From the IMG/VR virus record IMGVR_UViG_3300020176_000019, positions 1-55,754 of that record: 55,754 nucleotides of DNA; one strand, written 5' to 3'. The position numbers and the translations under genes were made by a program. The notes under the pieces are model-generated. The model was not told the DNA's origin and did not search any database. It was given only the letters and a program-made list of their open reading frames with translations. This stretch comes from a virus. Its lineage: Duplodnaviria; Caudoviricetes. Positions 9,281 through 49,690 of this stretch are shown piece by piece; position 1 is the first letter of the stretch, and every line of letters starts with the position of its first letter.

Positions 9281-9425
9281 TCTTTAGTATCTTATAGTTT
9301 TCCCGACCCCCACTCCGAAAACTTTCTCTCTAATATATTAGTATCTAATAGTAACTATAAGATACTAAAGGTAGTGGGGAAAAGTTTTTGAACCCCACCC
9401 CCTGAAAACTATTAGATACTAAAGA
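9281..9425. repeat. 145-bp quasi-palindromic element, copy A (inverted copy of 49546-49690)
   Basis: 22-bp terminal IR TCTTTAGTATCTTATAGTTTTC (1 mismatch); internal palindrome TTAGTATCTAATAGT-A-ACTATAAGATACTAA; paired AAAACTTT/AAAGTTTT boxes. Confidence 0.95.
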
Positions 9426-9428
9426 CCT

Positions 9429-11216
9429 TCAGGAGAGTAGCGAAGCGTCAGGATTGTTGAGCGCACCACTGAGGCTCTTAATTGTAACCTGTTTCCTGAA
9501 TCCTGTACCACTTTCCTCTTTTGGTGGATCCACTGCAACCAGACCCATTCGCTGTCTGGCACAGTCGAGAGCCAGAAACGCAGCGTCAGCCAAGTCAGGT
9601 GATCGACCGAACCGACTCTTGAACTCCTGCTTTGATTCGATCTTCACCTTCAGGGATCCGGTTTTCACCATATCGTAGTTTCGGGCGCACATCTCTTGAG
9701 CGAGGTCTGACGAGATCCCGTAGATTTGTTTTGTCCGAATCAACTCTTTGCCGACGAACCACAGCTCGCTGACACGGTTCGTGTAAAGCTCCTCTCCAGT
9801 CAGTTGGCTGTTCATGCTAACACGCTTGTCTGAGGGCTTGCCACCAAAGGTCACCCGCATGAAGGATGACTCCCATTCGCCAGCCAGCACGTCACAGAAC
9901 GGCGCACCTGCTCCGGTGGAGTCGAGTGCTACGTTATCTGCGGTGATTCCGCGCCTCTTGCAGTGGTCGATAATCTGGTGAACAATCTGGTAGGTTCGTG
10001 GAACCGCCTTGTTCGTCGCGTCATCGTTCAGGTGAATCGCCTCGCCAAGCTTACAGACATACTGACCGTTACGGGCGTAGCCTACCTCAGCGGTGAACAT
10101 AATCGTCCTGTCACCTCCGTTGGTGAAGGCCGGATCGACGCCAGCCACCATAGTCGGCTTCTCGGCCCAATCGACTTCCCCCATTGACCCGCTCTTCGCC
10201 AGCTCCGCTTCTGAGTAGATTCCGGTGGTCTCGTCACTGTCGAAGAACACAGCGCGAACCATTCGCATGTAACCTCTGGACTCCGCCCCCAAAAGCATCC
10301 GGTCCTCCTCCAGCTTGGCGGCGGTCGGGAGCCACGGATACTTCTCTTCGCCTAAAAGGATATTGGGACTCCGCTCGCCGTCGAGTCTGAGGTAATGCCC
10401 CTTCCACTTCGTCGGCCATTCGTCTGCGGTCTGCGGGTCGATGGAATCCCACCCGTTTTTCGGCTCCGACCAGACTCCGAAAGCGTCGAATCGACTATTC
10501 GGGTTGGACATCCCGATCATCTGGAAGGATGGGTTCTTCGACAAGTTCGTAAGTCCGGCATTTAGAATAGCTTCAGAAAGTTCTGAAAGTTCATCACCAA
10601 TCAGAATAACGCGCTTCTGCTTGATACCAATGAACTTACCGATAGCCTCGCGTGTCTTGGATTTCTCTGCCGCGATAAGTGATAAGCCAGCTCTTTCGAT
10701 AAGCGTGTCGTTCTCATCGACATACGCTGCGTTTCCGATTGAATCCCGAATCTTGATTGGCGCACCATCGATCACTGAGAGGAGTGACATGACTGAACCC
10801 CAAATCCTTTTTCGTGCTTCCCGTAGCGTCGTAGAGGTCATCAGGACCAATGTGTCGCGTGGTTGGCAGAGCCACTGGACAATGCCCCATGCGGCCATTG
10901 TGTGGGATTTACCGGACGAAGCAGAACCACCAATCGCCAGATACTTGTGTTTAATCGCAGCCCGAACCATCTGTTCGGCCCAAGGATGCCGGACCATCAT
11001 TGGTTCCGGTAGGTCTTCGCGGTTCCAGAGTTCGTCGCAGATCCGCCAGAAGTAAAACTCTTTCGCCTTACCGTTTGGGTGGTGGGCGAATCCGTATAGC
11101 AGAGCAGTGAGGAGACTGGTCGGTTGGATCATCAACCCGCCGACATCCATTTTCTTGGTGGTTGGGTCGATACGCGGCTCTAGAACGCGCTTGCGCTTGT
11201 CTGCTTCTGTAGGCAT
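9429..11216 (-). CDS. terL: Terminase large subunit
   Basis: Walker A GGSASSGKS, Walker B ILIGDE, motif III GMSNP, nuclease GVDPA and RSPDLADA. Confidence 0.9.
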   Translation of the reverse strand: MPTEADKRKRVLEPRIDPTTKKMDVGGLMIQPTSLLTALLYGFAHHPNGKAKEFYFWRICDELWNREDLPEPMMVRHPWAEQMVRAAIKHKYLAIGGSASSGKSHTMAAWGIVQWLCQPRDTLVLMTSTTLREARKRIWGSVMSLLSVIDGAPIKIRDSIGNAAYVDENDTLIERAGLSLIAAEKSKTREAIGKFIGIKQKRVILIGDELSELSEAILNAGLTNLSKNPSFQMIGMSNPNSRFDAFGVWSEPKNGWDSIDPQTADEWPTKWKGHYLRLDGERSPNILLGEEKYPWLPTAAKLEEDRMLLGAESRGYMRMVRAVFFDSDETTGIYSEAELAKSGSMGEVDWAEKPTMVAGVDPAFTNGGDRTIMFTAEVGYARNGQYVCKLGEAIHLNDDATNKAVPRTYQIVHQIIDHCKRRGITADNVALDSTGAGAPFCDVLAGEWESSFMRVTFGGKPSDKRVSMNSQLTGEELYTNRVSELWFVGKELIRTKQIYGISSDLAQEMCARNYDMVKTGSLKVKIESKQEFKSRFGRSPDLADAAFLALDCARQRMGLVAVDPPKEESGTGFRKQVTIKSLSGALNNPDASLLS

Positions 11217-11219
11217 AAT
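11191..11219 (+). promoter_or_regulatory. sigma70-type promoter for the TerS-like gene / replication operon, predicted leaderless
   Basis: TTGCGC-N17-CATAAT, then 7 nt to ATG 11227; the CAT is the antisense of the terL start codon. Confidence 0.55.
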
Positions 11220-11226
11220 TTAATAA

Positions 11227-11868
11227 ATGTCTGAAAAACCCATTAGAGAAGTCGAGGCCGAAGCCTTACGACTTAGCAAAGAAGGTTACAGTAATTCTGC
11301 TATCGGTCAACACATTGGAGTCCACCGCAACACTGTCCGTAACTGGCTGAGGAAGCATGGCGTTGCCCCGAAGATGAATGGGGACACAGCAGACGGGCGG
11401 GTTCTCGACAACCTGATTCACAATACCAAGATAAAAGAAGAACACCAAAAGCCTGATGCCGACACAGACCAGCTCAAAGAAGATATCGACGACCACTTTA
11501 ACGACACTATATCTTCTGCAATCGTTGAAGAAAGATTCAGGGCCTCGAAACAAGAAGACCTCGACCTCAACGAGATCGCAGAAGCCCAGAGTTCCCCCGC
11601 TGACAAATACCAGCACTACATAGCAGCAGCCGGAATTAAGTTGCTGAGGGACTCAATGAAAACGCTGCGTGGTCCGAAGACGATCCGCGAGATGTCAGAA
11701 CTCGACCAGCTCATTCGACGTAACTTAGGGCTAAACGCCAAGACTGGTGGTGGCAATAGTAAGATGCAAATCGACATCTCGATCCTGAATAACTCCAAAG
11801 CCGACAAAGGTGGGGGTGCGATCAGGCAGAAAAAAACGATTGACGGAGATACCGGAAAAGAGATTTAA
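11227..11868 (+). CDS. HTH protein, probable terminase small subunit
   Basis: N-terminal HTH (GYSNSAIGQHIGVHRNTVRNWL), helical middle, beta-rich C-terminal tail; adjacent and divergent to terL. Confidence 0.6.
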   Translation: MSEKPIREVEAEALRLSKEGYSNSAIGQHIGVHRNTVRNWLRKHGVAPKMNGDTADGRVLDNLIHNTKIKEEHQKPDADTDQLKEDIDDHFNDTISSAIVEERFRASKQEDLDLNEIAEAQSSPADKYQHYIAAAGIKLLRDSMKTLRGPKTIREMSELDQLIRRNLGLNAKTGGGNSKMQIDISILNNSKADKGGGAIRQKKTIDGDTGKEI

Positions 11869-11881
11869 TCAACCGCTCAAG

Positions 11882-12112
11882 ATGTTTACGAACCGACAGC
11901 CAGAAATGAACCCTCAATTCATCACGCGAGTGGATGACGGTGCAGACTTCCGTTTTCCGGTCGATAAGGCTGACGGCCTTTGGTATCGAGTGATCCCAGA
12001 AACCGCCAAAGAAGTTTTTTACTTGCAGGCGTTGCCAAAAGGGATCAGAGTTCTTGTCCCTGCTGAGGGCGATGGCCTTCTGGTTAGGGGAGACTCAATA
12101 CCAACGAAATAA
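11882..12112 (+). CDS. Hypothetical protein
   Basis: ATG 11882 (MFTNRQPEMNPQ); fills the operon gap. Confidence 0.55.
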   Translation: MFTNRQPEMNPQFITRVDDGADFRFPVDKADGLWYRVIPETAKEVFYLQALPKGIRVLVPAEGDGLLVRGDSIPTK

Positions 12113-12114
12113 TA

Positions 12115-12288
12115 ATGAATACAGAATTAGATTGGCAGAAGTTAGATATTATAAGACTGTTTCTCTTGAACCAAGAAGAAGAGTTCAGTAACCACATCGA
12201 AGAATTTGGATACGATTCTCCCGAAGCCGAACAACTGCAAGAGGAGATACTCCAGATCCTGTGGGATAAGATGGAAGAAGTATTATGA
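12115..12288 (+). CDS. Small acidic hypothetical protein (57 aa, not in track)
   Basis: MNTELDWQKLDIIRLFLL..; ATGA overlap with the next gene. Confidence 0.55.
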   Translation: MNTELDWQKLDIIRLFLLNQEEEFSNHIEEFGYDSPEAEQLQEEILQILWDKMEEVL

Positions 12289-12683
12289 AACCCGAAACCC
12301 TATTCCGTTTACACGAAGAGACGTGTAAGAAAACGCTCGAAATTATGCGGGCGAAGAACAGCGATTACTGCGGCGGCGAAAACACCGTCGATGCACTCGC
12401 GAACTTCAAGACCGCTCAATCTTTAGGTCTTCATCCGGTCACCGGATTACTGTTGCGGATGCAGGATAAGCTCATGCGGATTAAGTCATTCGTCAACGAC
12501 GGCGAGTTGAAGGTTGCTGGCGAGTCCGTCAATGATGCCTGTGAGGATCTCGTCAACTATGCGATTCTTGCGAAAGCCCTCTTCCTTGAAGAACGAGAAG
12601 ATCTTTGCGAACACTGCGGAGGTGACGTAGAGATTGAAGATAAATGCCAAAACATTCTCTGCCCGAGGTTAGGGTCTGAGTAG
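12285..12683 (+). CDS. DUF1599-like / nucleotide-modification-associated helical protein with C-terminal Cys cluster
   Basis: KNSDY..ANF..LLRMQDKLMRI..DACEDLVNYAIL; CEHC..C..C tail. Confidence 0.65.
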   Translation: MKPETLFRLHEETCKKTLEIMRAKNSDYCGGENTVDALANFKTAQSLGLHPVTGLLLRMQDKLMRIKSFVNDGELKVAGESVNDACEDLVNYAILAKALFLEEREDLCEHCGGDVEIEDKCQNILCPRLGSE

Positions 12684-12755
12684 TTATATAGGGAATAGAG
12701 TCGGAGGAGATCTCCGGACGATGGCTTCTGTTTCTCCATTCATTGAACACCCTAT

Positions 12756-13250
12756 ATGACAGATCTAATCATCGGAATTGACAACGGACTCGATGGCGGA
12801 CTTTGTGCAATATCTACATTTGACGGTGTTGTTATTGCGAAGACTCGCATGCCGACCATCCAGCTATCCAAGAAAAAGGAGGTGGATATCCGTAAGGTCA
12901 ATCAGTGGATATTAGATCTACACTCCTCCTTTGAATTAGCGATTGAAGAACCGCTCGCACACGCAAAAAGCAGCCAAGCCGTCCGGTCGATGGCGATCTC
13001 ATTTGGCAAACTTTTAGGTATGGCTGAAAGCCACCGTTATCTGGTCAAGCGTGTAAGCGTCCATAAGTGGCAGAAGCATATGCTTGGCCGGATTCCCAAA
13101 GGAAAGACCAAAGAAGCCGCCCTAGAACTGGCGGAACAACTCGCGCCTGAAGAGAACTGGCTCGCGAACAAACGGTGCCGGAAGCCCCATGACGGCATGA
13201 TCGATGCCTACCTAATTGCCACCTACATCTGGTCTGGAAAAAAAAGTTGA
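12756..13250 (+). CDS. RuvC-like Holliday junction resolvase
   Basis: IIGIDNGLDGG, IEE, FGKLLG, W..HML, HDGMIDAYLIA motifs. Confidence 0.8.
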   Translation: MTDLIIGIDNGLDGGLCAISTFDGVVIAKTRMPTIQLSKKKEVDIRKVNQWILDLHSSFELAIEEPLAHAKSSQAVRSMAISFGKLLGMAESHRYLVKRVSVHKWQKHMLGRIPKGKTKEAALELAEQLAPEENWLANKRCRKPHDGMIDAYLIATYIWSGKKS

Positions 13251-13305
13251 GAATTTTCTGGACGGATTATTGATCGTCATTTATTTGTCTGTGCATAGAC
13301 AATAA

Positions 13306-14598
13306 ATGAAGACACTATACGAAAAGCAACAAGAAGCCTTCGACTTCTTTATCGCTAAACAAAGAGCTGGCTCGAACACCCTAGACACGAGCCACGTCGG
13401 AACTGGTAAGACCATCGTCGCTTGCCACCTTGCGAAAGTATTAAACAGGCCAGTTGCGGTTATTTGTCCGAAAGCGGTGATCCCATCATGGCAACGCGAA
13501 CTCGCCGAGTGCGGCATCGAACCGTTGTTCGTCCTGAACTACGAGAAGATCAGGACTGGCCGGACAGACTTTATGTCTAAGCGCGGCAAGAAGATCATGA
13601 GGTGGGACTTGCCGGAAAACACACTTATGCTCGTGGATGAGGTCCACAAATGCAAAGGGCCATATACCCAGAATGCTCAACTGCTGGTTTCGCTCGTAGC
13701 TCAAGGCTACTCCGTCCACGCAATGTCCGCGACTGCCGCCGAAGACCCGACAGAGATGCGGCCAATCGGGTTCGCGTTGGGTCTTCACAACCTGAACAAG
13801 TCTGAAGACGGCCTCAAGAGTTGGTATGGCTGGATGATGCAGTATGGTTGTAGCCAGAATGAATGGGGCGCGTGGGAGATACTCCGTAAGTCAAAGCTCA
13901 GTGACCTCAATAAGGTCATGTATAGCAAGAACGTCAAACGCCTGACGGTCGATGACTTCCCTGATTCCTTTAAAGCGAATCGTGTATTCGTGGAGCCTGT
14001 AGCCTTTACCTCTGCGTCAAAAATCGCGAAGGCGTATGAGAAACTCGGCATCACGCCGGAGATCATCGAGGATTACCTACTCACCGGATCGGTGGACGAC
14101 AGCGAGTGGGTCCTTGTAAATCTGCTACGTGCAAGACAGCTCGCTGAATCGCTGAAAGCGAAAGACATGGCGGACATGGCTAAGGACTATATCGAACAAG
14201 GCAACAGCGTCGTCATGTTCGTGAACTTCTCCGATACCGCTGAGGTCTTATCGGGTCTGCTCGATTGCCCTGCTATTGTCGGTGGACAGACGGCAGAGGA
14301 GCGTCAGCAGATCATTGACGATTTTCAGGCAGACAAGCAGAACGTCATTGTCGTCAACATCGCGGCTGGCGGAACCGGAATCTCGCTGCATGACATCAAC
14401 GGTAACCGCCAACGGATCTCGTTGATCTCACCGACCTTTAACGTGAAAGATCATTTACAGGCGTTAGGCCGTATCCACCGTAACGGTGCGAAGAGCGACG
14501 CTATCCAGAAGATCTTAGTCGCTGACGGCTCTATCGAAGAGCATGTCATGCGCGTAATCGAAGAGAAAACTTCAAACCTCAACACCTTACACCAATGA
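13306..14598 (+). CDS. Superfamily 2 (SNF2-like) DNA helicase
   Basis: Q motif, GTGKT, DEVH, SAT, GGTGISL, QALGRIHR. Confidence 0.9.
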   Translation: MKTLYEKQQEAFDFFIAKQRAGSNTLDTSHVGTGKTIVACHLAKVLNRPVAVICPKAVIPSWQRELAECGIEPLFVLNYEKIRTGRTDFMSKRGKKIMRWDLPENTLMLVDEVHKCKGPYTQNAQLLVSLVAQGYSVHAMSATAAEDPTEMRPIGFALGLHNLNKSEDGLKSWYGWMMQYGCSQNEWGAWEILRKSKLSDLNKVMYSKNVKRLTVDDFPDSFKANRVFVEPVAFTSASKIAKAYEKLGITPEIIEDYLLTGSVDDSEWVLVNLLRARQLAESLKAKDMADMAKDYIEQGNSVVMFVNFSDTAEVLSGLLDCPAIVGGQTAEERQQIIDDFQADKQNVIVVNIAAGGTGISLHDINGNRQRISLISPTFNVKDHLQALGRIHRNGAKSDAIQKILVADGSIEEHVMRVIEEKTSNLNTLHQ

Positions 14599-14927
14599 AC
14601 AAAATAGCCGGACTAACTAATTATAAGCAGACCATTATTGATAAAGTAGTCTCACTCGTGGCGGGAGAATTTTCCGTTGAAGAGGGAGACCTATTTAAGA
14701 AGTCTAGGGCATCACGATATTCAATTCCGAGATCGATAGCGGTCGGTATCCTTAGAAAATTCTACGGGATACAGCAACAGATCCTAGCTGACTACTTCGG
14801 ATACGTATCCCACAGCAGCGTAGCTCACGCAGTTCAATCAGTTGAGAAAAAGATCAACATTGAGCCAGAGATAAAGAAGATTGTTGAGAACATCCTCTAC
14901 AATATTAAGCAGCTAGAAATCAAATAA
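14595..14927 (+). CDS. Stand-alone DnaA C-terminal (domain IV)-like HTH protein
   Basis: V..EFSV..DL.KKSR....PRSIA..ILADYFG..SHSSVAHAV pattern matches DnaA domain IV. Confidence 0.7.
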   Translation: MNKIAGLTNYKQTIIDKVVSLVAGEFSVEEGDLFKKSRASRYSIPRSIAVGILRKFYGIQQQILADYFGYVSHSSVAHAVQSVEKKINIEPEIKKIVENILYNIKQLEIK

Positions 14928-14929
14928 TC

Positions 14930-15253
14930 ATGGAAAACATAGAGATAAAAGAGAACTCGAAAATGATGCAGGAAGCGATTGTCATTGATGCGACAAGGCT
15001 TATCAAAAAATATTCAGAGCAGTATGGCCTACCACCTAAATGGATAATGAGCCGTTTTGATGAGGGCGGCCCAAAAGGTAGGACCATCCAAACCAGAATG
15101 CAATCCTCTCACATTAGGCATCGTGTAATCACTGAGCTAGCCGATTTGGGATATTCGAGAGATTTGATAGCGCGTTCGTTCAACCTTGGCCGTGACGCGA
15201 TAAACAGCATTATTAGTAAATTCAGAAAACAACAAAATGAACACCAACACTAA
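14930..15253 (+). CDS. Putative HTH protein, possibly a divergent DnaA domain-IV-like paralog
   Basis: SHIRHRVITELADLGYSRDLIARSFNLGRDAINSII. Confidence 0.5.
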   Translation: MENIEIKENSKMMQEAIVIDATRLIKKYSEQYGLPPKWIMSRFDEGGPKGRTIQTRMQSSHIRHRVITELADLGYSRDLIARSFNLGRDAINSIISKFRKQQNEHQH

Positions 15254-15410
15254 ATACTTATCAGAGGCAGAGAAGGTCAGACTCAAGCTACTTGAGGATG
15301 AGATCTTCATGTTGAACAACAAAGTTGAGCGCACACTCAAGAAACGCGACCGCCTCCAACGTGAGGTGAAGCGGATAAACGGAATGACCGCCAAATCCAA
15401 TGGCTCTTAA
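15237..15410 (+). CDS. Small coiled-coil protein (57 aa, not in track)
   Basis: MNTNTKYLSEAEKVRLKLLEDEIFML..; overlaps both neighbours. Confidence 0.5.
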   Translation: MNTNTKYLSEAEKVRLKLLEDEIFMLNNKVERTLKKRDRLQREVKRINGMTAKSNGS

Positions 15411-17686: not shown

Positions 17687-17688
17687 TC

Positions 17689-17880: not shown

Positions 17881-17889
17881 GCATAGCAC

Positions 17890-17933
17890 AGGCCCACTCC
17901 GGTTTATGTCTCTGCCGGAGTGGGTCTTTCTTT
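17890..17933 (+). terminator. Rho-independent terminator
   Basis: AGGCCCACTCCGG..CCGGAGTGGGTCT stem followed by TTCTTT. Confidence 0.75.
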
Positions 17934-17951
17934 GCCTAGAGACCAAATAAT

Positions 17952-25963: not shown

Positions 25964-28900
25964 TAGTAGATGGTGTAGGTGTCGTTGATGTTATTCTCGA
26001 TGCCTGTGCGGTTAGCAACTTGGTTATCTCCAAATACGACAACTTCCATTAAAGGGCCGTCTGAGAAAGCTGAACCACCTTGCATTACATGAAACATATT
26101 TTGACCAATATCAACCTGAGTTTCAGTTGCTGTGCCTAAACTTGTTCCGTTGGAAAAAACTTCTTGTGTATTGCCTGACACTTGAGCGGATAAAACTTTT
26201 CTTCCGGTCTGGTTAGTGTAGTCCACAGTGCCTAAAGTGTTGTATGAAAACCCTCCATTTTGAATATAAAGCCTAGGGATAGCGCCTTCAATACCCATAG
26301 CCAAATCATCTTCATAAGCAGCAGTAACCAAAAAGTCCGAACTGTCTAGCTCATTAGTCAGCGTTGGGTGGAACAAAGTGTCATCGACTCCGTCACCAAT
26401 GATTGCTGGGTTGTTCGCTGAGTCAGTCACCAACGTGCCACCATCGACGATTTTTGGTTGTGCGCTTGCGGTTGACTGTGAGCTATCCCGTCCGTTTGAA
26501 CTCTGGTCATACCATGTGGTGACGTGGCCGTCGAATCCTTGACCGCTGAAGAGTGCTGGTGTGCCGTAGACTGTAGCATCGTTAGAGCCAACTTGGTCAG
26601 TCCAATCTGCGTTTGTGTTGCCGTAGCCTTGGTAGGAGGCTTGTCCATTGAAGTTAATGTCTGAAATTACCCCATTAAAGAAATCACTTGAACCAGCACG
26701 GCTACCTATTGACTCCAACGAAAAGTCTGCTGTTGAAACAGAATTGATCGTTTCGGATTGCACAGAAAAACCATCATCTAGCTCTAATGTTAAGTCGCTT
26801 CCAGAGCGAGTTAGCGTGGTAGTATAAATTGTATTTTGGTTATAAGTAAGCCCAGTGAATTCATATAATACCGACGCAATTCTTACACTCGGCATTCCAG
26901 CCGCAATAAATAAGCGATTTGTGCCAGCATTTCCATATACTGTATTTTGTCCAGCTAACCCTGTCGATAAGACTTCGGCTGTTATTGCAAAATCACCAGA
27001 AATAGTCAGAGTGCTTGCGAGATCAATGTGGTCATCCACCCCATCAAAATACATACGTTGACCATCAAGTGCTAGCGTGTCACCTAACGTCCAGTCACGA
27101 AGAGTCCCATCGCTAACCTCGGATGCCGTGAAGTCGCTTGTCGCACCATCGCTTGAGCGTCTCACATTGACCACATTCGGGTCAGCGTCAGCGTCGAACG
27201 AGCGGAGACTGTAAGCGGCTGCGGGTTCTAACGTCAGGATGTTCGGGATAATCTGCTCACCGTTGATGTAAACCTGCCAGCCTTTGCCGGAGAGACTGTC
27301 GATTGCAGCAGTCGTAGCAGCACTGAGTGAACCAGTGGCTACATTGTAGTCGATGTCGATTCCAGCGTCAGCCAAAGCAGAACCACCAGATGCTCCGGTA
27401 GCCGTTGCGTATTTGCCGGATGCGTCGATGGAGACAAGGATGTTCTCTACGCTCTGTGATGTGAGTGACGTGCAGCCGTCCCATGCTATGTTAAACACTC
27501 CGCTTAAGATGCTTGATGGATTCCAGTTAGCGAAGACATCTGCGGAGAAGTCGGTGAGTGAAGTGCATTGATACCAAGCGAAACGCGTGCTAGTCGCTAA
27601 AGGAAGCTCTGTGCTAAAACTTTCAAGTGAAGCGCATCGATACCAAGCGGCATAAGCGTTAATCACTAAGGGAAGCTCTTCGCTAAAACTTTCAAGTGAC
27701 GAGCAGTCTTGCCATGCGTTACTCAAATCAGTCACGGAAGGAAGCGCGGAGCTAAAACTTTCAAGTGATGAGCAGCCACGCCATGCGTTACTCACGGAGG
27801 TCGCTAAGGGAAGCTCTGCGCTAAAACTTGTAAGTGATGAGCAGTCTCTCCATGCGTTACTCGCGGTAGTCGCTGTAGGAAGCGGAGTGCTAAACGAAGT
27901 GAGTCCACTGTCTCTCCATGCGCTCGTAAAGTCCACGTTACTCGCCTCCGTGCCTAGCTTTGCGTCCGCCGGAAATGACGTAAGTGACGAGCAGTTTTGC
28001 CATGATTCAACAAAGCTAGAGCTGTTAGTAGCTTGAATAGCCGAAAACGATACAAGATTACTATTGCCTTTCCAGCTTCTGTATAAATTATTGGCTCCTT
28101 GAAACTCAGTTTGCTTAAACTCAACAATATCAGTTCTATTTAACCACGCGGAGCCGAATCCACCAGTATAAGCAGCATCAGACGCACCTCGGTCGATAAG
28201 CAACTTACGGGCTTCCTCGATGTCACGACCAGTTGCGCTCTCTGGTAACAAAATGATTCCATACAAATCCCCGAATGCCCGATAAGTCCCAGCGTTGCCA
28301 AGCATTGTTAGTTCAGTGACCGCAGTATTGTTCACCTTGTAGGCAAACGTGCCTTTTGAGGTTCCGCAGATTTGCCAGCCAGCCTGAGTTGTCGATGGGA
28401 TGTCTAGGTGGTCGCTGGTGTCCGCAAAGGTAACAACATATCCATCACCCACTGGTTGGTCGTTGGCGGTGGCCTGTGTCGCATACTTGTCGGTGTCCCC
28501 ATTGTCTGAGCCTACGATTCTTCCGTTCCACGATGCGCTGCCTGATGAGATGTTACCGACTGGTGCTTTCTGGGCGTCGTAGAAGTAGTAGCCATCAGTG
28601 TCATGGCGCAAGAACACGGTGTTCCTGTTGTTAATGAAGTTCCGCACAGCGTCCGCTTGGGCATCGGTGATGCTTGATGCGTCGAACAGGGCGAGATACT
28701 CTAGGTCGATTGGCATATTGAAATCACCCGCTTTCCGTGCGGCTAAAACAAAATCATCGACTCCAACAGTTCCGCTTAAAGTTTTATTCTCTTCGTCAGC
28801 GTTGTTAATAAAACTGTTCTGCTCACCGTTTGTTATTTTTACATCAAGCAGCATGTCCCCACGCGCGGAATCATACATTCCATCGTGTATAATCGAACCA

Positions 28901-33513: not shown

Positions 33514-33542
33514 AATATAATAGGATTAGGTAGCCAAGTCAA
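33514..33542 (-). promoter_or_regulatory. sigma70-type promoter, predicted leaderless transcript
   Basis: TTGACT-N17-TATATT, then 6 nt to ATG 33507. Confidence 0.7.
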
Positions 33543-35677: not shown

Positions 35678-37329
35678 GGTTGTGATTGAGATTCTGATAC
35701 TGATGAGTAACTTTTAGCTGATCCACTAGAATCTGATGAAGAGTCCGAAGCAGAAGACGAAGCAGAAGACGAAGCAGAAGACGGATAGACCACACCCCCA
35801 CCAGAATCTGAAGAAGAATCTGATGAATGTGAAGCAGAATCTGAAGCAGAATCTGAAGAAGAATCTGGATAAGATTCAGCAGGAAAACTTATTTTGAATG
35901 TGTAGTTGGCTTTCTGGGGAGCCATGTAAATGGCGTCACCATACGTAATACCGTAAGAATACCATGAGTCATTAGCAGAGTTAGTGGTGGAGCCTGAACC
36001 TGCAAGTTCAGTCGATATGTCCTGATAACCAATTTCGTCTGTTGCTGGGTCTATCCAGAATAGATAAGGTATTTCATACGGAACTGAGTAGATAAAACCA
36101 TCTGGGCCTAACACAGATGAATAAGACTTATTCTTATAAGTGTCTACCTCACTGCTAGTCCCACTGTTATGCGTCGTTTCAAACACCCGCAAAGCAGACG
36201 GTAGAGAGATTTCAGTAGCCGAGTCATCCGAGGTATCGATCTTTAGGATCGCATTGCCATGCCTCGGGAAACAGTAAATGCACCCGTTCGACGGGACGTA
36301 AGTTCCTCCAGAATACTTATTCCAATAGGCGTGGTTCAAAACCACATTGAAACTCCACGTCCCACTGTAAAGAGGTTCGTTACCTGTGAGCTGGTCCGAA
36401 CCTAAAGTGATGCTGTCATCTGACGGGTCTACGATAGCAATACGGTCAGCCCCGTAAGGAGTCAAATACACCTTCCCGTTACCTGCTGTAGTCGCTCCGA
36501 AGTAAGCATCATACATCCATGTGAATGCCGTGCTTTCTGTATTCCAGTTAGGTCGGACTGAGTATATCCCCCCAGTCCGTGCTGGTGTGAACGATATTAA
36601 CGACTGAGTAAAATCAGACAGATTAAACTTAGATACGACAGGGTTAGAGAGCGTGGATGTATTACGGTAGTAGATACTCCCGTAAATTTTGCCGGACGCC
36701 AACGCGCCTCCACGAATGCTGTTCTTCGTAAGACCAGATTTGTAATTGATGTCGGGGTCGTCAGTCCCTGCCGGATCTACTTGAAGGTAAGACGTATTAC
36801 CACTTGGGTTGGCGTATATTTTACCATCACTAGCCGTTAAAGAATCAACATATTTCTGAGTGGAGCTACCAGCCACCGTCCCCGATCCCGTTTTACGGGT
36901 TGTGTCATTTGACGGATCGATGATTAGAACTTCATCTTCTTGGTAGGGGGTGCAGTATAATTTGCCGCCGCTTTCTGCGATACCGCGCCATTTAAGATTA
37001 GTTGCCTCTCCTAAGTCGCTTCCAATCAGCTCGAAAGTAAGGTTAGGGCCTCCACTACCACTAGACCCACTGCCCGAAGAACTGGAAAAACTTTCAGATA
37101 CGCTACTTGAGGACCTCGTAGAAGCACTACCAGAGGCGGAAGCACTTGCAGAGGCGGAAGCACTTTCAGAGGCGGAAGCACTTGCAGAGGCGGAAGCACT
37201 TGCAGAGGCGGAAGCACTTTCAGAGGCGGAAGCACTTGCAGAGGCGGAAGCACTTGCAGAGGCGGAAGCACTTTCAGAGGCGGAAGCACTTTCAGAGGCT
37301 AGAGACTCGGACGAACTCGATTCTGACAT
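35674..37329 (-). CDS. Serine-rich-repeat virion protein with central beta-propeller-like domain
   Basis: N-terminal (SA/SE)n tract; C-terminal S/D/A tract; central G..A.nGKiY..Py....il.iDp..D repeats. Confidence 0.75.
   Translation of the reverse strand: MSESSSSESLASESASASESASASASASASASASASESASASASASASASASASESASASASASASGSASTRSSSSVSESFSSSSGSGSSGSGGPNLTFELIGSDLGEATNLKWRGIAESGGKLYCTPYQEDEVLIIDPSNDTTRKTGSGTVAGSSTQKYVDSLTASDGKIYANPSGNTSYLQVDPAGTDDPDINYKSGLTKNSIRGGALASGKIYGSIYYRNTSTLSNPVVSKFNLSDFTQSLISFTPARTGGIYSVRPNWNTESTAFTWMYDAYFGATTAGNGKVYLTPYGADRIAIVDPSDDSITLGSDQLTGNEPLYSGTWSFNVVLNHAYWNKYSGGTYVPSNGCIYCFPRHGNAILKIDTSDDSATEISLPSALRVFETTHNSGTSSEVDTYKNKSYSSVLGPDGFIYSVPYEIPYLFWIDPATDEIGYQDISTELAGSGSTTNSANDSWYSYGITYGDAIYMAPQKANYTFKISFPAESYPDSSSDSASDSASHSSDSSSDSGGGVVYPSSASSSASSSASDSSSDSSGSAKSYSSVSESQSQP
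37131..37298 (-). repeat. 18-bp coding tandem repeat x9 (SASASA/SESASA)
   Basis: CAGAGGCGGAAGCACTT(G/T) nine times, variant order G,T,G,G,T,G,G,T,T. Confidence 0.95.
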
Positions 37330-38363
37330 TACGACCTCGGATATGCTGAGTTAATGAACTTCTCGTTAGCGATGAACTGCTCTTTGCTACGCTCCGGCAT
37401 ATCCAAATGTTTAAAGCCTTTACGTATTCCAGTCAGTTTCAAAGTAACCTTTGTCGGCCTCAAGAATGGTATAGGCCACGCCGAAAGGACGACGTTATTT
37501 TTCTCGACCACCGCGCCGACTGGTCCAGCTCTGTCGCCGGAGATACCTGTAATAGTCATCGAGTCAGGCTCACATACGGCTAGAAACCTGTCGTCGATTC
37601 TAGCCACTGTCTTAGCTCCTTCCAACGGAACGTCCCTCATCACGAACTCAAAAAGAACCTCGTTGGATTCCATCGTGAATAACGCACCGTATCCTTTTTC
37701 GTGCCAGTCCATAGGCACAATAGCAGTAGATTTGTCTGAGCCGGAGTCAGAAACTGACGATGATGAGTCTGAAACACTACTTTCTTCCTGAATGCCGAAA
37801 GCCGTGAGCCAGTAAACATCGGACGAGATGTTCTGGTCTAAGCTAGAAATCGGGGTCCCACCATCTGGAACATTACCGATCTTCAGGTAGAACTGACCGC
37901 CCAGATCATTTGGGAGACCGCGAGAAGGTGGCACGCCATCCTTTCCCGTAATCTCGCATTGTGTTACGTTGCCAGCGGAGTCCGTCGTCCAAGCTAGATA
38001 AACATCTCCCCTCCAATCAAGATCATAGAAATCATAGCGGTTTTCACTAACCGCCATCGGTGAAGGGATTATACTTTGAGGATTACCTACACCAGTCTGA
38101 GTCACCAGACCGTCTTTGTTGAAGGTCATCCGGTTGATCTGGTGGACCAGAACACCGAAATAGATCTGCATCCCGTCTTCGCCGTCTATCGTCGTAGGGC
38201 GTAGCGCAAACGGAAACGGCTTATAGGCCGGATCTTCGGGGCTGACGTCGCCCGTTGCGGTATCGTAATCGTCAGTGTAGGCAGTTGTGTAATCCCGCAT
38301 CCCCTCGGGTGGGGAATCTAACGGGATAGGTAACGGGATGTCAGAATTATACTTCGGATTCAT
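37329..38363 (-). CDS. Virion structural protein with Ser-rich linker
   Basis: Likely start ATG 38363 (MNPKYNSD); EESSVSDSSSSVSDSGSDKSTAIVP linker. Confidence 0.6.
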   Translation of the reverse strand: MNPKYNSDIPLPIPLDSPPEGMRDYTTAYTDDYDTATGDVSPEDPAYKPFPFALRPTTIDGEDGMQIYFGVLVHQINRMTFNKDGLVTQTGVGNPQSIIPSPMAVSENRYDFYDLDWRGDVYLAWTTDSAGNVTQCEITGKDGVPPSRGLPNDLGGQFYLKIGNVPDGGTPISSLDQNISSDVYWLTAFGIQEESSVSDSSSSVSDSGSDKSTAIVPMDWHEKGYGALFTMESNEVLFEFVMRDVPLEGAKTVARIDDRFLAVCEPDSMTITGISGDRAGPVGAVVEKNNVVLSAWPIPFLRPTKVTLKLTGIRKGFKHLDMPERSKEQFIANEKFINSAYPRS

Positions 38364-43526: not shown

Positions 43527-43541
43527 GGTAATTTTTTCTGT

Positions 43542-43586
43542 AAAAAAGAACCCCGCTACCCGTTTTGGAGACAGGTAACGGGGTTC
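43542..43586 (-). terminator. Rho-independent terminator after the capsid genes
   Basis: Minus strand GAACCCCGTTACC..GGTAGCGGGGTTC followed by a T run. Confidence 0.85.
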
Positions 43587-43609
43587 ATGTTAAGTGATAC
43601 GTGATTAGC

Positions 43610-43807
43610 TTAAGAAGCTAAAGGACTCATTCCCAAGGCTTGCGCTAACTCATCGACGGTAATGGTCTTAGCTTTTTGCTCGGAGATATCGTAAACCTGA
43701 AGAACATCATCTTTATTAAGCTGATCTTTTGCAGCAGAATTGACAGCGGTCAGATCAGTAGTCCCCAGCAGCTTCGCGATAGTCGGTGCGTCATCTAGTG
43801 TTGGCAT
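43610..43807 (-). CDS. Small capsid-associated protein
   Basis: 65 aa between the major capsid gene and the terminator. Confidence 0.6.
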   Translation of the reverse strand: MPTLDDAPTIAKLLGTTDLTAVNSAAKDQLNKDDVLQVYDISEQKAKTITVDELAQALGMSPLAS

Positions 43808-43829
43808 AATTCTATAAAAGTTACGCTAA

Positions 43830-43863
43830 GTAATGTTCCCGAAACAGATTTCAGGAACATTAC
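43830..43863 (-). promoter_or_regulatory. Hairpin after the major capsid gene (processing/stability or partial terminator)
   Basis: GTAATGTTCC-C-GAAA-CAGA-TTTC-A-GGAACATTAC inverted repeat. Confidence 0.55.
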
Positions 43864-43876
43864 CTAACTAGATTAA

Positions 43877-45154: not shown

Positions 45155-45228
45155 TGTTCTAAATAAATAAGGGTTTGCGCTTCCGGCCAACGTGGTCGGA
45201 AACTAAAAAGTTTAGGGCGAACCTCAAT

Positions 45229-45311
45229 TAGAACTATTTACTGGCTAGAGCAACCACGAGTTTCTATGTGCTTTACCAGTTGTAATAGAACTAATTTAGG
45301 CTAGAGCAACC
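45229..45311 (-). repeat. Tandem duplicated motif in the capsid gene leader
   Basis: TAGAACTA-N5/6-GGCTAGAGCAACC at 45229-45255 and 45286-45311. Confidence 0.85.
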
Positions 45312-45325
45312 CAACTGATACGCGC

Positions 45326-45353
45326 ATATTACCACCGACTAGAAATCTGTCAA
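45326..45353 (-). promoter_or_regulatory. sigma70-type promoter for the major capsid gene
   Basis: TTGACA-N16-TAATAT with TG extension. Confidence 0.65.
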
Positions 45354-45358
45354 TGGGG

Positions 45359-46558
45359 TCACACAGCCCCCAGAGCCGCGTTCACACGCTGCTCGAATGA
45401 CATATCGTCGCTTAGGCCGGAGCCTGTTACCGAAGAAGCTTTCGTCTGACCAGACATCGCTGGCTCTGCGTCCTCATACTCCGCAAGGCGGTCAGTCAAT
45501 GACTCAACCTCTTTTCTCATCTCAAGATACTGTCGAACAACCGTCGGGAAGACTTGGGCTGAGACCGCATTGTAGGCGTGGTCAACAGGATGGAGAACAG
45601 ATGGGTCGGTTTCAGCGGCCTTCTGCTGGATGGCTTGCATATCAAGTCCTTCGATTCCTTTGAGGAAGGGCAACTTCTGCTGGACTCTTTCGACGACGTT
45701 TTTGGTGACATTCTGCCTAAGTTGGGCTTGTTCTGCTGCATTTGCGGCTAGTTGCTGCTCTTCGAGTTGTTTTGCTTCAGCAAGGGCTTCATCAGCGTTC
45801 TGGTAAAGCTGCTCACGACGCTGGATGATCGGGTCAACTTCTTCCATGATACGGAAGATCCGAGCCTTATCTCGGTCACTAGCATTTGGCAAAAGCTCTG
45901 CTAACTGCTCCTCCTGCTCTTGCGGGTCGTCCAACGAGATAATATCGACCAAAGCGTCTGGATCGACTTCATACTTGTCAGCAATCTGGTCAGCCTGCTC
46001 TACCAAAGCCGCTAGTGGCTCCGATACCGCTGTTTGATACGCTTGAGTCTGCTCAAGGTTCGAGAGTGCTTGCTGCTGCTCATATTCCGCCAGTTTCGAC
46101 TGTAGCTGCTCGACGTCTTTGTTTTCGACAAGTCCGGTGAGTTCCTGTATTTTCGACTCATATTCCTTTGACTGCTGACGCAACTGCTCCAACTCTGAAC
46201 GGTTTGTCTTCAATTCCGTCTTGAGTTCCTTAAAGCGATGAGCCGCTTTAGGTGTCCAGTCGTCGCCAATGTCCTCCGACAAGTCTTCGATTGGATCTGA
46301 TTCCTGATCCCCTGTATCCTGTTCCACTGATTCCTCAGCCACTGGTTCGGGTTCAGGCTCTGCGGCTGGTTCAGGTTCCGGTTCAGGCTCTGCGGCTGGT
46401 TCAGGCTCAGGCTCTGCGGGTGCTTGGTCAAGGCTGGCAAACGCTGCTTCCAACGAGGCTTCAAAGGAAGAGGGTTCGGTGGCGTCCGGCAGGGCATCCA
46501 CATTAGTTGGTGCTTCTACGGCTTCAGCGGCTTCTACAGCTTCTACAGGTGCGTCCAT
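45359..46558 (-). CDS. Capsid scaffolding protein
   Basis: Very acidic, EPEP repeats, long coiled coil; between portal and capsid. Confidence 0.75.
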   Translation of the reverse strand: MDAPVEAVEAAEAVEAPTNVDALPDATEPSSFEASLEAAFASLDQAPAEPEPEPAAEPEPEPEPAAEPEPEPVAEESVEQDTGDQESDPIEDLSEDIGDDWTPKAAHRFKELKTELKTNRSELEQLRQQSKEYESKIQELTGLVENKDVEQLQSKLAEYEQQQALSNLEQTQAYQTAVSEPLAALVEQADQIADKYEVDPDALVDIISLDDPQEQEEQLAELLPNASDRDKARIFRIMEEVDPIIQRREQLYQNADEALAEAKQLEEQQLAANAAEQAQLRQNVTKNVVERVQQKLPFLKGIEGLDMQAIQQKAAETDPSVLHPVDHAYNAVSAQVFPTVVRQYLEMRKEVESLTDRLAEYEDAEPAMSGQTKASSVTGSGLSDDMSFEQRVNAALGAV

Positions 46559-46860
46559 TCGTCAGGTTGGTTTGGTTTGTGGGTGGAGGGCCGATGTGTC
46601 AGCTTCTCCAAATCATTGAAAGCGTCTCGGTAGCCAGCATACCACGCCAGCTTGTGGCTGTTGGCCTGCGGGTCAGGATCTAAAGCAGTAACGGTAGGGC
46701 CAGAGGCTTCCTTCAGGATGGCCACAGCCTGCTGGAATACCGGATCTTCGATGAGATCATGTAGGTGGGTCACAGCCTTAACGTCATTAAACCACCGCTC
46801 CAGTTTAATTGGAACGGCGATCTTCTTCGCTGCTTTCTTTGCGGCCTTTTTAGCTGGCAT
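46543..46860 (-). CDS. Small head-assembly-region protein
   Basis: 105 aa between portal and scaffold; PAKKAAKKAAKK N-terminus. Confidence 0.6.
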   Translation of the reverse strand: MPAKKAAKKAAKKIAVPIKLERWFNDVKAVTHLHDLIEDPVFQQAVAILKEASGPTVTALDPDPQANSHKLAWYAGYRDAFNDLEKLTHRPSTHKPNQPDEWTHL

Positions 46861-49082
46861 TATTCTTGTTCACGAAACCTTAAGGCGGCTTCGGCATCAC
46901 GGATCGCTTGCTCTTGGTCGAACTTTCTTTGCTTGATAGCCATGTCCAGTTCTGCCTTTTGCTGCGCGATCTGCATATCGACTTGCGCCTTCTGTAGTTT
47001 CATATCTATCTCAGACGCTTGGGGTTGTCCAGCCCCTTCTTGCATATTTTCTGCCTGCTCGCGTTGGATCTTTTCCAACGCCTTCATCGTGTTGTTGATG
47101 GCCTCCTCGGCATACTGGAGGACTTGCTTCGTCTGAGCCACTGTAGCCTGCAACGCTGGATCGCCCGCAGCAAATTGGGCGGTCTCGCTGATGTGCTGGT
47201 AGAGGGCCTGCAAAGCCGGAAGGACTCTCTGTGGATCTGCCTGACCGCCGTCGATGGCTTCGATGATCTGCTGGAGCAACGGAACGTGCAACTGCAAGTG
47301 CTGGCCGTGTAACTCGCTCGATACAACCGGAACTGGCTGTCCTTGCTGCAACTGCTGGTTCTCCAGATAGGCAATCTTGGTATCTACCGTCGGCCTCTCC
47401 GAGTCTTGCGCCGGAACGTAGCGATCCGCGAGGTCGTGACCGACACGAGTGCTAACGATGTCACGAGTAAGGTTGCGGCGGCCCACGTCATCGAACTGTC
47501 CGCTGATTCCTTGCAGCTCCCGCAGTGCGACGAGTCGATTAGCGTGTGAGCCGTTTCCGATAGAGCGGACTGCTTTGGTTTGTTCGACATCAAGTTTCTT
47601 AATAAAGTCTGCGTCTACGCCGCGCTTCTCGCACCGTGCGAAGAAGTCTTTAATGGCAGCGTCAGGACGTTTGGTCTGGACTACTCGGCGAACCATCTCG
47701 CGCATCAGGCGGGTCCAGCTCGCGTAGAACAAGTTAAGGGTAGAACCAGAAATACGGGTAGCGACATCCATGTCGGCTACCACCTGCATCTGATTCTTGT
47801 ATGGTGAACCCTGATTCGGTCCATAGGTGGATATCGTATCGGTATTCAGTGCGAGCTGCTGCGATAAGTCCTGCAACGCTGGTTGGACCGCTGTGCCTAA
47901 GTTGGGGATCGCCTTCTCGACAATCCGCACGTTGGGCGACATCACGGCATACGCGCCGTAGAAAGTGAACTGTAGCTCGTCCAGCGAGCGTTGGTTCTCC
48001 GGTTGAATCATCACGGCAGAGCCGAGCATCGCGCCGTCAATCTGCTGGCAACGTAAACGGTTACTCGTCTGGACATGCGAGAAGATCCGCTGGCCCAAGC
48101 CCCGAACAGAATGGTAGGTGCCGTTGCTGCCAACGCCATACGAGAAGAAGATATACGCCTGCTCCGGTGAAGCATAGCGACTAACCTTCTTGTAGAGGAA
48201 GTCCTTCGGGCTGGTTTCAGCCGATATATAGTGGCTTACGCTCCCATCCATCTCGCGGACCCAGTAATGAAGCACGTCTACAGTTGGGTTTTGAATTCCG
48301 GTGTAGAGGTCGTTGTTCTTAATCTCCGCTTGAAGAGCTTCATAGTCGGAGTAAGTCGTGCCAGATTGATAGGAGCGACCCGAAGTTTTCACGTTGTCAA
48401 GCATCACCCGCTTGACCTCATCGACGTTCCAACCAACTGATTTAGCGGCCTTCTCGTTCTTGATGAAATGATATAGCTCGTGCAGATGGTATTGGCGTCG
48501 GCCAATAGCGATGTCGATCCCGTTCTCAGAGGCAGGTGATTGTCTCGGAATCAGGATATCTGCAAAACCGCCGACTCGAAACTTCCAGTCGTCGGGCGAG
48601 TCGAAGTAGGCAATACCTACGCCGTGCTTAATGAATTGAGTGCAAAGTCGAAGGTAGCTGGAGTGAAACTCTGGCCAACGGCGGAACAAGTTTGTCAGCT
48701 CTTCCGCTACAACGTCCTCTTTTGGCCCCTGCTCGCTTTTCTCGCCCGTTGTGGATTTCACCTCCACAAGACGCTCCAAAGAGCTGTAGAGGTCAACGTA
48801 GGCCGAAAGAGAGATATCCAGCAAACGCTGCGCTTCTCCAAAGTTCAAGTTGGTCTTGAGTCCCTGACCACTAGCCGCCAACTGCGATTGGCTGTAAGGC
48901 GCAGCACCGTCAAACATACTGTCGATCCGCGCACGGTTGACAGCGGACTTCTCATCAGCCTTGAGCAAGGTAGCAAATAGGCCGACAGCAGACTTCACGT
49001 CCTTCAGGCGTGTCTCGACTGGTTTCCCTTTTTCATCGAGACTCCCCAAGTCGAGTCCGTCCAAGTCAATTAGGTTTGACAT
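46860..49082 (-). CDS. Portal protein
   Basis: ~740 aa from ATG 49082 (MSNLIDLDG); first large head gene; RGLG motif and Q-rich helical C-terminus typical of podoviral portals. Confidence 0.75.
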   Translation of the reverse strand: MSNLIDLDGLDLGSLDEKGKPVETRLKDVKSAVGLFATLLKADEKSAVNRARIDSMFDGAAPYSQSQLAASGQGLKTNLNFGEAQRLLDISLSAYVDLYSSLERLVEVKSTTGEKSEQGPKEDVVAEELTNLFRRWPEFHSSYLRLCTQFIKHGVGIAYFDSPDDWKFRVGGFADILIPRQSPASENGIDIAIGRRQYHLHELYHFIKNEKAAKSVGWNVDEVKRVMLDNVKTSGRSYQSGTTYSDYEALQAEIKNNDLYTGIQNPTVDVLHYWVREMDGSVSHYISAETSPKDFLYKKVSRYASPEQAYIFFSYGVGSNGTYHSVRGLGQRIFSHVQTSNRLRCQQIDGAMLGSAVMIQPENQRSLDELQFTFYGAYAVMSPNVRIVEKAIPNLGTAVQPALQDLSQQLALNTDTISTYGPNQGSPYKNQMQVVADMDVATRISGSTLNLFYASWTRLMREMVRRVVQTKRPDAAIKDFFARCEKRGVDADFIKKLDVEQTKAVRSIGNGSHANRLVALRELQGISGQFDDVGRRNLTRDIVSTRVGHDLADRYVPAQDSERPTVDTKIAYLENQQLQQGQPVPVVSSELHGQHLQLHVPLLQQIIEAIDGGQADPQRVLPALQALYQHISETAQFAAGDPALQATVAQTKQVLQYAEEAINNTMKALEKIQREQAENMQEGAGQPQASEIDMKLQKAQVDMQIAQQKAELDMAIKQRKFDQEQAIRDAEAALRFREQE

Positions 49083-49090
49083 ACTTTGCG

Positions 49091-49118
49091 AGTATATGGA
49101 TTTCGTCGTCAATGTCAA
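49091..49118 (-). promoter_or_regulatory. sigma70-type promoter, near-leaderless portal transcript
   Basis: TTGACA-N16-TATACT, then 8 nt to ATG 49082. Confidence 0.65.
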
Positions 49119-49546
49119 TGTTCAGGGTAGGCGTCCTCCACGATCTTCTCCATGCGGACCCAATGGGCGCGACCGTCTTCTGTCTTGAGGCGGACATACT
49201 CTTTCTCTCCGATGTCCTTAGTATGGACTAGAAACGGGTTACCTCGATACTTCCTACCAGTATTCCGGAATTTCCAGACAGCTCCGTAAGGTGTGACCTT
49301 GTAATCAGGATAATCATCGACGACTCGCATCTCTACGTTTGGTAGCGTGTGTTGATGCACACTCAAGTCGTCATGGTAAACTCTCCGTTGCGTTCCCTCG
49401 ACGTCTACGACGTAAGAGTATGACCGTGTATTAAGCTTATAGCGTTTTACCCTTTTCGCGAGCTTCATGTTATACACATGGTCGTTAGGCGACAGCGCGT
49501 ATTGTGGCGCGCCTTTGATTTCTTTCCAGTTTTCAGGTATTCTCAT
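49115..49546 (-). CDS. Tandem NUMOD4-like protein without a recognisable nuclease domain
   Basis: WKEIKGAPQYALSP..HVYN and MRVVDDYPDYKVTPYGAVW..YVRL; no HNH motif. Confidence 0.65.
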   Translation of the reverse strand: MRIPENWKEIKGAPQYALSPNDHVYNMKLAKRVKRYKLNTRSYSYVVDVEGTQRRVYHDDLSVHQHTLPNVEMRVVDDYPDYKVTPYGAVWKFRNTGRKYRGNPFLVHTKDIGEKEYVRLKTEDGRAHWVRMEKIVEDAYPEH

Positions 49547-49690
49547 CTTTAGTATCTTATAGTTTTCAGGACCCCCACTTCAAAAACTTTTCCCCACTAC
49601 CCTTAGTATCTTATAGTTACTATTAGATACTAATATATTAGAGAGAAAGTTTTTGAGGTGGGGGGGTAGAAAACTATAAGATACTAAAGA
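49546..49690. repeat. 145-bp quasi-palindromic element, copy B (inverted copy of 9281-9425)
   Basis: Perfect 22-bp terminal IR extending imperfectly to ~45 bp; central 15-bp IR; reverse complement aligns without gaps to copy A. Confidence 0.95.

Follow-up and report, generated by a model that had tools for sequence, protein, structure and literature searches.

In T-even phages, very stable hairpins lie ahead of the homing-endonuclease open reading frames (ORFs), and the operator that I-TevI binds upstream of its own gene is similar to its homing site elsewhere (PMC2988022). The control regions of these genes are the nearest described arrangement, by analogy, to the two elements analyzed here. 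The elements, A and B, lie about 40 kb apart in IMG/VR virus record IMGVR_UViG_3300020176_000019, from an uncultured salt-marsh phage; the record (55,754 nt, classed linear, completeness estimate 92%) is referred to at its full length as the window. The feature that they form is real, conserved and unusual. Other known systems resemble it in part. Bidirectional intrinsic terminators consist of an A-tract, a hairpin and a T-tract between genes, in either orientation. The sib retroregulator of lambda and the RNase III sites of T7 have an upper stem, an internal loop and a lower stem, also between genes. The oriL/oriR regions of SPP1 and the ori/crr regions of P4 contain direct boxes bound by the replication initiator, in or near the gene for that initiator. 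We suggest with a probability of roughly 0.4 that A and B are paired operator-type DNA sites of an adjacent NUMOD4-like protein, P0002, and that they also fold as long RNA hairpins.

A preliminary description of this DNA had reported two near-identical inverted elements of 145 bp. The pair is real, and each member is 147 bp long: a gapless alignment of A (9280-9426) with the reverse complement of B (49545-49691) has 128 of 147 positions identical. As had been described, the differences center on two spacers (mismatches at 9303-9306, 9314-9317 and 9393-9400); the others are at 9369, at 9413 and at both ends, where the terminal positions differ as a pair (G..C in A, A..T in B). The 15-mer TTAGTATCTWATAGT occurs exactly eight times in the window, four times in A and four in B as earlier counted, and nowhere else with up to two mismatches allowed. 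Shuffled sequence is expected to yield 0.07 matches, and none of 100 shuffles reached eight. The inner inverted repeat is 15 + 1 + 15 nt, as first given, whereas the arms of the outer inverted repeat are 23 nt rather than 22. A AAAACTTT/AAAGTTTT pair is, within the window, confined to A and B. Both elements are AT-rich, with a GC content of 0.35 (A) and 0.33 (B) versus 0.50 for the whole window. Their parts are listed below, neither element being assigned to a strand.

9280..9426, no strand: element A, a 147-nt nested palindrome
9280-9302 and 9404-9426: outer arms of A
9303-9317 and 9389-9403: spacers of A, not complementary to each other
9318-9325 and 9381-9388: AAAACTTT and AAAGTTTT of A, respectively
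9326-9337 and 9369-9380: asymmetric 12-mers of A
9338-9352 and 9354-9368: inner half-sites of A, with the center at 9353
49545..49691, no strand: element B, with the build of A in inverted orientation
49545-49567 and 49669-49691: outer arms of B; pairing reaches 49544 and 49692 (CAT and ATG on the sense strand)
49568-49582 and 49654-49668: spacers of B, complementary, unlike those of A
49583-49590 and 49646-49653: AAAGTTTT and AAAACTTT of B, respectively
49603-49617 and 49619-49633: inner half-sites of B

In RNA folding, A and B each form a single long hairpin on either strand, with an energy of -79.8 kcal/mol for B (z -14.5) and of -54 to -55 kcal/mol for A (z -6.7 and -9.5). The core contributes 33 pairs to the stem, which reaches up to ~70 when the outer arms are counted. 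Rfam had no family in the query, and ARAGORN found no tRNA in it.

The module is kept at two fixed places by the relatives of this phage. A terL (large terminase) search of IMG/VR gave 170 relatives, from which we kept 80 loci with 83-99% identity. When the sequence downstream of terL was inspected by eye in 45 of these loci, 44 showed an A-tract, a hairpin and a T-tract directly behind terL and then the same promoter and gene start; the central palindrome is degenerate in two of the 44 (L150 and L151). The remaining locus (L188) has an extra ORF after terL, and the module lies behind that ORF yet ahead of the promoter. A strict arm pattern combined with a folding threshold detected the module in 41 of the 80 loci. 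A portal search gave 54 loci, two of which, truncated at the 5' end, were set aside. Here the same kind of module lies ~560 nt upstream of the portal gene, just before the homologue of P0002, and seven loci have two copies of it in tandem. A NUMOD4-like ORF is upstream of portal in all 52 loci examined, and its 5' end carries a long AT-rich single hairpin in 31 of the 52, compared to 12 of 463 control windows.

Conservation of position extends further than conservation of sequence. Relatives with terL identities from 99% down to 67% have a palindromic module of like build in the same two places. In the distant genomes (terL 67-78%), the palindrome sequence is wholly different, yet it is common to both sites in three of the four in which terL was found. 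One distant genome (G005) lacks a palindrome after terL; there, the promoter is overlapped by a lone 10-nt half-site. The records of four relatives, three of which are at least 90% complete by CheckV, showed the module at the two loci only. Small mobile inverted repeats such as MITEs occupy varied positions and have target-site duplications; here, there are just two fixed loci in the window and these four records, and we saw no target-site duplication flanking A or B. The 15-mer, which the preliminary description proposed to look for in related contigs, gave just single scattered, chance-like matches in IMG/VR, and the 27-nt inner palindrome gave none. Neither the DNA surrounding A and B nor the TerL protein had a match in the phage records searched. 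In a third lineage, a non-coding hairpin with the same arms (AAAACTTTTCTCTC...GAGAGAAAAGTTTT) is upstream of the terS-terL genes (L264:7295-7366, L355:2560-2900 and L373:5804-5875), and L355 has three more direct copies of TTTTGAGAGAAAAGTTTTT in the non-coding stretch upstream of these genes.

The two copies in one genome change together. Of 15 contig pairs, three were without a core by pattern, which left 12 relatives and the window for comparison. The identity between A and B within a genome has a median of 0.944 (17 comparisons), and the identity of cores between genomes has a median of 0.755 (78 pairs). Divergence between genomes runs through paired (compensatory) stem changes, and relatives with near-identical printed flanks differ at several paired stem positions. 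The orientation of the asymmetric core is free: it is direct between the two sites in six genomes and inverted in six others and in the window, so that the arrangement in the window is one of two equally common states. The terL-side core of L126, which is 95% identical to the window over 3 kb, is in the opposite orientation.

These orientations bear on the earlier proposal that the 40-kb segment between A and B can flip-flop by crossover at the two elements. The copies are inverted in the window and both breakpoints are intergenic, which agrees with this proposal. However, terL and portal share a strand in the window and in all 15 contigs with both genes, and thus no inversion of 40 kb is seen; moreover, the copies are direct in 6 of the 12 relatives in which both cores were compared. 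The unit that flips is the asymmetric core (~50 nt) within each element, not the 40-kb segment. Invertible segments of the Hin/Gin type have a recombinase and are found in both orientations, and no recombinase family matched any ORF scanned, in agreement with the earlier remark that none was visible. We consider inversion of the segment extremely improbable.

The cores also have a fixed geometry. From AAAACTTT to AAAGTTT, the length is exactly 71 nt in 32 of 47 distinct cores, with a range of 68-73. In an alignment of 39 cores, 85.0% of the cells pair, compared to 75.5% in shuffles (none of 500 shuffles reached 85.0%), and 22 of the 33 stem pairs are changed on both sides. The upper stem is highly variable but still paired, columns 12-20 form an internal loop, and the lower stem is invariant. 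The fixed length and this conserved three-tier hairpin both favor the main rival of the operator reading, namely that the elements act purely as RNA. According to this rival, A and B are boundary hairpins that end or process short upstream transcripts (of terL and of the 86-aa gene) and shield the virion operons, and the copies are alike only through gene conversion. They could be bidirectional terminators or RNase III-type sites; with the outer arms they resemble lambda sib, in which read-through lengthens the stem. We think that such a purely RNA-level role is possible but doubtful. It would suit the A-tracts and T-tracts of 5-8 nt that bracket the stem in relatives (T5-T8 behind the core), the fact that the element often begins at a stop codon, and the stem extensions built from unrelated sequence in some genomes. 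It would also suit the RNA fold of B, where the outer stem includes both the paired ATG of P0002 and the TAG that ends the upstream 86-aa ORF, and thus a stop codon together with the next start codon. The predicted structure is compatible with an RNase III-type site (20 bp or more of double-stranded RNA, interrupted by an internal loop).

Other observations argue against a role as RNA alone. There is no strand preference: within a genome, the sense strand folds better at one of the sites but the antisense strand does so at the other. In relatives, A-tract and T-tract are of equal length (means of 6.1-6.4 and 6.6-6.7), which gives no polarity. In the window, only T4 (A) or T5 (B) follows the core before the outer arm, and no T-run is behind the outer stem. 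A terminator scanner called neither element, and the long stem with a GC content of 0.33-0.35 is unlike the short GC-rich stem and 3-8 nt loop of an intrinsic terminator. Ordinary GC-rich hairpins of the terminator type, with T-runs, serve elsewhere in the window (43527-43609, minus; 17881-17951, plus), which makes the AT-rich, sequence-conserved design of A and B special. Some relatives have no ORF upstream of the element, and the reuse of half-sites outside any hairpin would not be explained by a purely RNA-level role.

Assembled contigs from RNA libraries give a further point. Of 21 listed runs, 20 contain the stretch or part of it, and four RNA-library runs were compared over 6500-13000. 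One RNA-library contig (8900-10652) runs straight through A, which speaks against a boundary there, although it might come from DNA carry-over, which is possible in these contigs because their depth is even on both strands. Another contig ends at 9398 and then continues in adapter letters, and a further two join at 9380/9384; assemblies break at the A/B repeat itself, and the contigs give no usable boundary signal. Separately, in an RNA-library contig of run X5, 47 nt are replaced by 14 other letters and 124 nt are skipped (8691-8896), inside a 306-aa ORF. This contig is probably a population variant, since the ORF is highly variable among relatives (median identity of 33%).

The genes and promoters around A and B, all on the minus strand, are as follows.

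9429..11216, minus: large terminase gene terL (PHROG 2), with its stop 2 nt from A
9239..9267, minus: sigma-70-like promoter TTGACA-N17-TAATTT, with the DUF5754 GTG start 6 nt further on; kept downstream of the element in relatives
8939..9232, minus: DUF5754 gene, which opens a block with the giant ORF (at least 2314 aa) at its end
49684..49944, minus: very basic 86-aa ORF, with its TAG stop inside a B outer arm; fast-evolving, and missing in some relatives
49115..49546, minus: P0002, a 143-aa ORF with two tandem NUMOD4-like beta modules and a candidate binder; its ATG is the last base pair of the B outer stem
49554..49583, minus: weak promoter-like TTGAAG-N18-TAAGAT in the 3' half of B, 7 nt before the P0002 ATG; 8 of 12 consensus positions, under the scanner threshold
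49091..49118, minus: sigma-70-like promoter TTGACA-N16-TATACT, 8 nt before the portal ATG (49082)
46860..49082, minus: putative portal gene (our own reading, without a Pfam or PHROG match), first of a long virion block

A sits 2 nt past the terL stop and 13 nt upstream of the promoter at 9267-9239, which abuts the DUF5754 gene. B sits between the stop of the 86-aa ORF and the ATG of P0002. Both elements had been placed directly upstream of minus-strand late operons. This is true of A, which heads the DUF5754 promoter; B, by contrast, heads P0002, and portal has its own promoter (49118-49091), 430 nt beyond B.

Several features of these transcription units are of separate interest. Near-consensus promoters of the form TTGAC(A/C)-N16/17-TAnnnN on the minus strand (9239-9267, 49091-49118 and 49950-49978) end 5-8 nt before the starts of the DUF5754, portal and 86-aa genes, which suggests that the mRNAs of these three genes are leaderless. 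Similar hexamer pairs in intergenic DNA (33514-33542 and 45326-45353) are more distant from the next start codon. A Shine-Dalgarno-like sequence is not obvious before terL or P0002. At 45191-45358 (minus), a ~130-nt leader containing two direct repeats (GGTTGCTCTAGCC...AGTTCTA) separates a promoter-like TTGACA-N17-TAATAT from a 437-aa ORF. The giant ORF at 1-6945 (minus), of at least 2314 aa, runs past the end of the record and has no Pfam or PHROG match. We had considered that the hairpins might be promoters for a virion RNA polymerase; this idea was dropped because a simple pattern search found no RNA-polymerase motifs in the giant ORF. Tandem repeats within coding sequence consist of five 69-nt units at 27557-27901 (in a 1340-aa ORF) and eleven 18-nt units at 37067-37335 (in a 551-aa ORF).

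If A and B are operators, the product of the gene next to B is the candidate to bind them. The predicted structure of P0002 has two tandem beta modules (AlphaFold2 pLDDT of 91), and a PHROG family of HNH endonucleases covers its residues 72-142. No HNH family was found in P0002 or its 14 homologues, which does not point to an active endonuclease, and a fold search with P0002 gave no match at E <=0.001. The gene looks to be derived from a homing endonuclease. P0002 evolves fast, with a median identity of 62% where that of portal is 89.5% and that of terL 90%, and its divergence follows that of the palindrome (r of 0.84; partial r of 0.73 with portal as the control). The corresponding partial r is 0.54 for the 86-aa neighbor and 0.06 for the helix-turn-helix protein beside terL. 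The half-site is also reused: the outer arms repeat the inner half-site of the lineage both in the clade of the window (the window, L126 and L127) and in the TTTGGTGCTGT clade (L185, L195, L218 and L220), and L220 has six exact 10-mer matches in both orientations, those of the element itself included.

A similar pairing of module and gene is found outside the lineage. Some 100 nt ahead of a NUMOD4 gene, an unrelated phage, without a portal match, has a module whose arms are the same and which includes a TTGGTATC palindrome. The product of this gene matches NUMOD4 above the Pfam cut-off and HNH_3 below it (E of 0.0081 and 0.00026). Relatives of the gene were found at seven loci; three are close, and the four distant ones are without the module. 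Downstream of the NUMOD4 gene that follows the module, this unrelated lineage has a gene for a ~900-aa protein (L291:1941-4640 and L365:414-3119) that matches PHROG 4291, labeled RNA-dependent RNA polymerase, with 1325 bits and has N-terminal HTH_23 and HTH_7 motifs.

We postulate that A and B are the pair, in this genome, of a palindromic control module that occupies two fixed intergenic places throughout the phage lineage, one ahead of the NUMOD4-like gene that precedes portal and the other between terL and the promoter of the block for DUF5754 and the giant protein. Each 15-bp half-site would be one binding unit and the inner pair would be the core operator, to which a second pair of half-sites may have been added on the outside in this window. 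By binding both sites, P0002 could couple control of its own gene with control of two virion-gene blocks. When transcribed, the element would form a long hairpin that closes the short transcription unit upstream, and in this window the hairpin would also bury the start codon of the NUMOD4-like gene. The earlier suggestion of protein-binding platforms for late genes gains support in this respect: the module heads two virion-gene blocks in all relatives, is always beside a DNA-binding gene, and has a half-site motif that is reused.

Several findings weigh against this interpretation. The match of P0002 to Pfam PF07463 (NUMOD4) is sub-threshold (E of 0.022; 15.4 bits with a cut-off of 23.4), only 2 of 15 homologues have NUMOD4 at E <=0.1 (the best at 4e-4), and I-HmuI is a weak fold match (rank 15, E of 0.058, TM of 0.34). 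The correlation between P0002 and the palindrome is confounded by physical linkage, as the partial r of the 86-aa neighbor indicates. The distance from the element to the downstream promoter varies from roughly 16 to 130 nt, and the module of the unrelated phage was found just once in its genome. That the top of the stem differs between near-identically flanked relatives is hard to square with base-specific reading of all 15 bp. In addition, the stem of several lineages (L144, L164 and L193) is lengthened by unrelated but complementary sequence, and the lower arms pair across the internal loop and, in distant lineages, differ yet are complementary; these observations point to single-strand pairing rather than to a duplex operator.

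Two other explanations involve a homing endonuclease. In one, the element has no function of its own and is a palindrome from a homing-endonuclease cassette, spread by template switching and gene conversion and at most a recombination hot spot. Such an origin could account for the module with the same arms beside a NUMOD4 gene (with sub-threshold HNH_3) in an unrelated phage, for the tandem duplications, for the flipping of the core between 95%-identical genomes, and for the mostly Watson-Crick symmetry, in which wobble pairs are few and about as many as non-standard cells. A passive palindrome would not be expected to keep two fixed positions and a fixed geometry in relatives down to 67% terL identity, nor to lack scattered copies, and none were found in the window or the four relatives' records. 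We consider this explanation improbable. The other goes further than the operator reading, and we regard it as unlikely: the DNA-binding module of a homing endonuclease, without its nuclease, might have been taken over as a switch for virion genes, with operators that co-change so fast that close relatives have different protein-site pairs. If so, a lytic phage would have a specificity system akin to immunity groups, and repeated break repair at the sites would have produced, as by-products, both the flipping core and the likeness of the copies.

Since A and B adjoin terL and portal, and since no small terminase was identified among the ORFs scanned, the sites could serve as recognition sites for packaging, with the NUMOD4-like protein as the DNA-recognition partner of the terminase. 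We find this very unlikely. Two identical sites 18 and 40 kb apart are ill-suited to one packaging start, no contig ends coincide with the sites, and a 213-aa helix-turn-helix protein beside terL, with a sub-threshold match to Terminase_5, is a more ordinary candidate for the small terminase.

The preliminary description also proposed that A and B are twin iteron-type origins of replication. The repeated motif, the AT-rich composition, and a DnaA-domain-IV protein and a primase-helicase encoded in the window agree with this idea. Origins of this type have regular direct repeats beside an unwinding region and an initiator gene and a switch in strand composition at the site, whereas the repeats here are nested and inverted and the sites are beside terL and portal, distant from the replication genes. 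Cumulative GC skew is flat at B, without an extremum there, and its minimum near 11 kb coincides with a switch of the coding strand. A tandem array of 7/14-nt repeats at 50140-50320 is a better candidate, and the idea of twin origins, which finds no support, seems to us most improbable. The array (50140-50340) is within an ORF-free stretch of 1.2 kb between divergent genes (49945-51145) and has ~14 tandem 14-nt units made of two 7-mers (CAGGAAA and CAGGAGA). Distant relatives have CAGGAT-type repeats at the same position, and the array is a better candidate than A or B for an origin or a control array. The DnaA-type protein (14595-14927, plus; 110 aa) consists solely of the domain IV helix-turn-helix (Pfam E of 1e-11) and is very fast-evolving, with a median identity of 46% in close relatives (n=12). 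As a caution for similar cases, a pair of identical inverted repeats separated by 40 kb does not necessarily mark origins or inversion sites.

If the operator reading is correct, the DNA-binding part of a selfish endonuclease has become a regulator whose two targets are distant from each other, evolve jointly and head virion-gene blocks. The lineage is common and uncultured, in marine and salt-marsh samples, and its terL and the surroundings of A and B matched no phage record searched. It offers a simple protein-site pair with natural variants.

Among known systems, bidirectional terminators share with the module the A-tract, hairpin and T-tract between genes; the stem here, however, is long, AT-rich and partly sequence-conserved, has an internal loop, and in the window has no T-run after the full stem. 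Like lambda sib and the T7 RNase III sites, the module has a stem-loop-stem between genes with outer arms that can pair only after read-through; unlike them, it has no strand preference and occurs at just two sites, with the same sequence at both. The origins of SPP1 and P4 also have two distant regions with the same repeated boxes, whereas direct boxes, initiator binding and proximity to an initiator gene were not found for A and B. REP/BIME palindromes (PMC3184786) are likewise just past stop codons, variable in orientation and changing together; they are many, scattered and GC-rich, whereas A and B are two fixed AT-rich copies.

It had been said that no described phage element has this design. 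No description turned up in the literature searched; nonetheless, the T-even homing-endonuclease regions (PMC2988022) are a known analogue. As in those regions, a very stable hairpin is immediately upstream of an endonuclease-type ORF (B ends at the P0002 ATG, with comparable hairpins in the 31 relatives noted above), and the site upstream of the gene resembles a second site in the genome. The T-even hairpin that hides the start and contains an internal promoter, from which late transcripts escape the hairpin, has at most a partial counterpart: the AUG is paired in the window, the internal TTGAAG-N18-TAAGAT has only 8 of 12 consensus positions, and in most relatives the start codon is outside the stem, 10-25 nt past it. 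A and B differ from the T-even regions in that no nuclease domain was detected and two NUMOD4-like modules are present, that this window has a second, outer pair of half-sites, and that the second site is a full copy before another operon, the two copies changing together and flipping.

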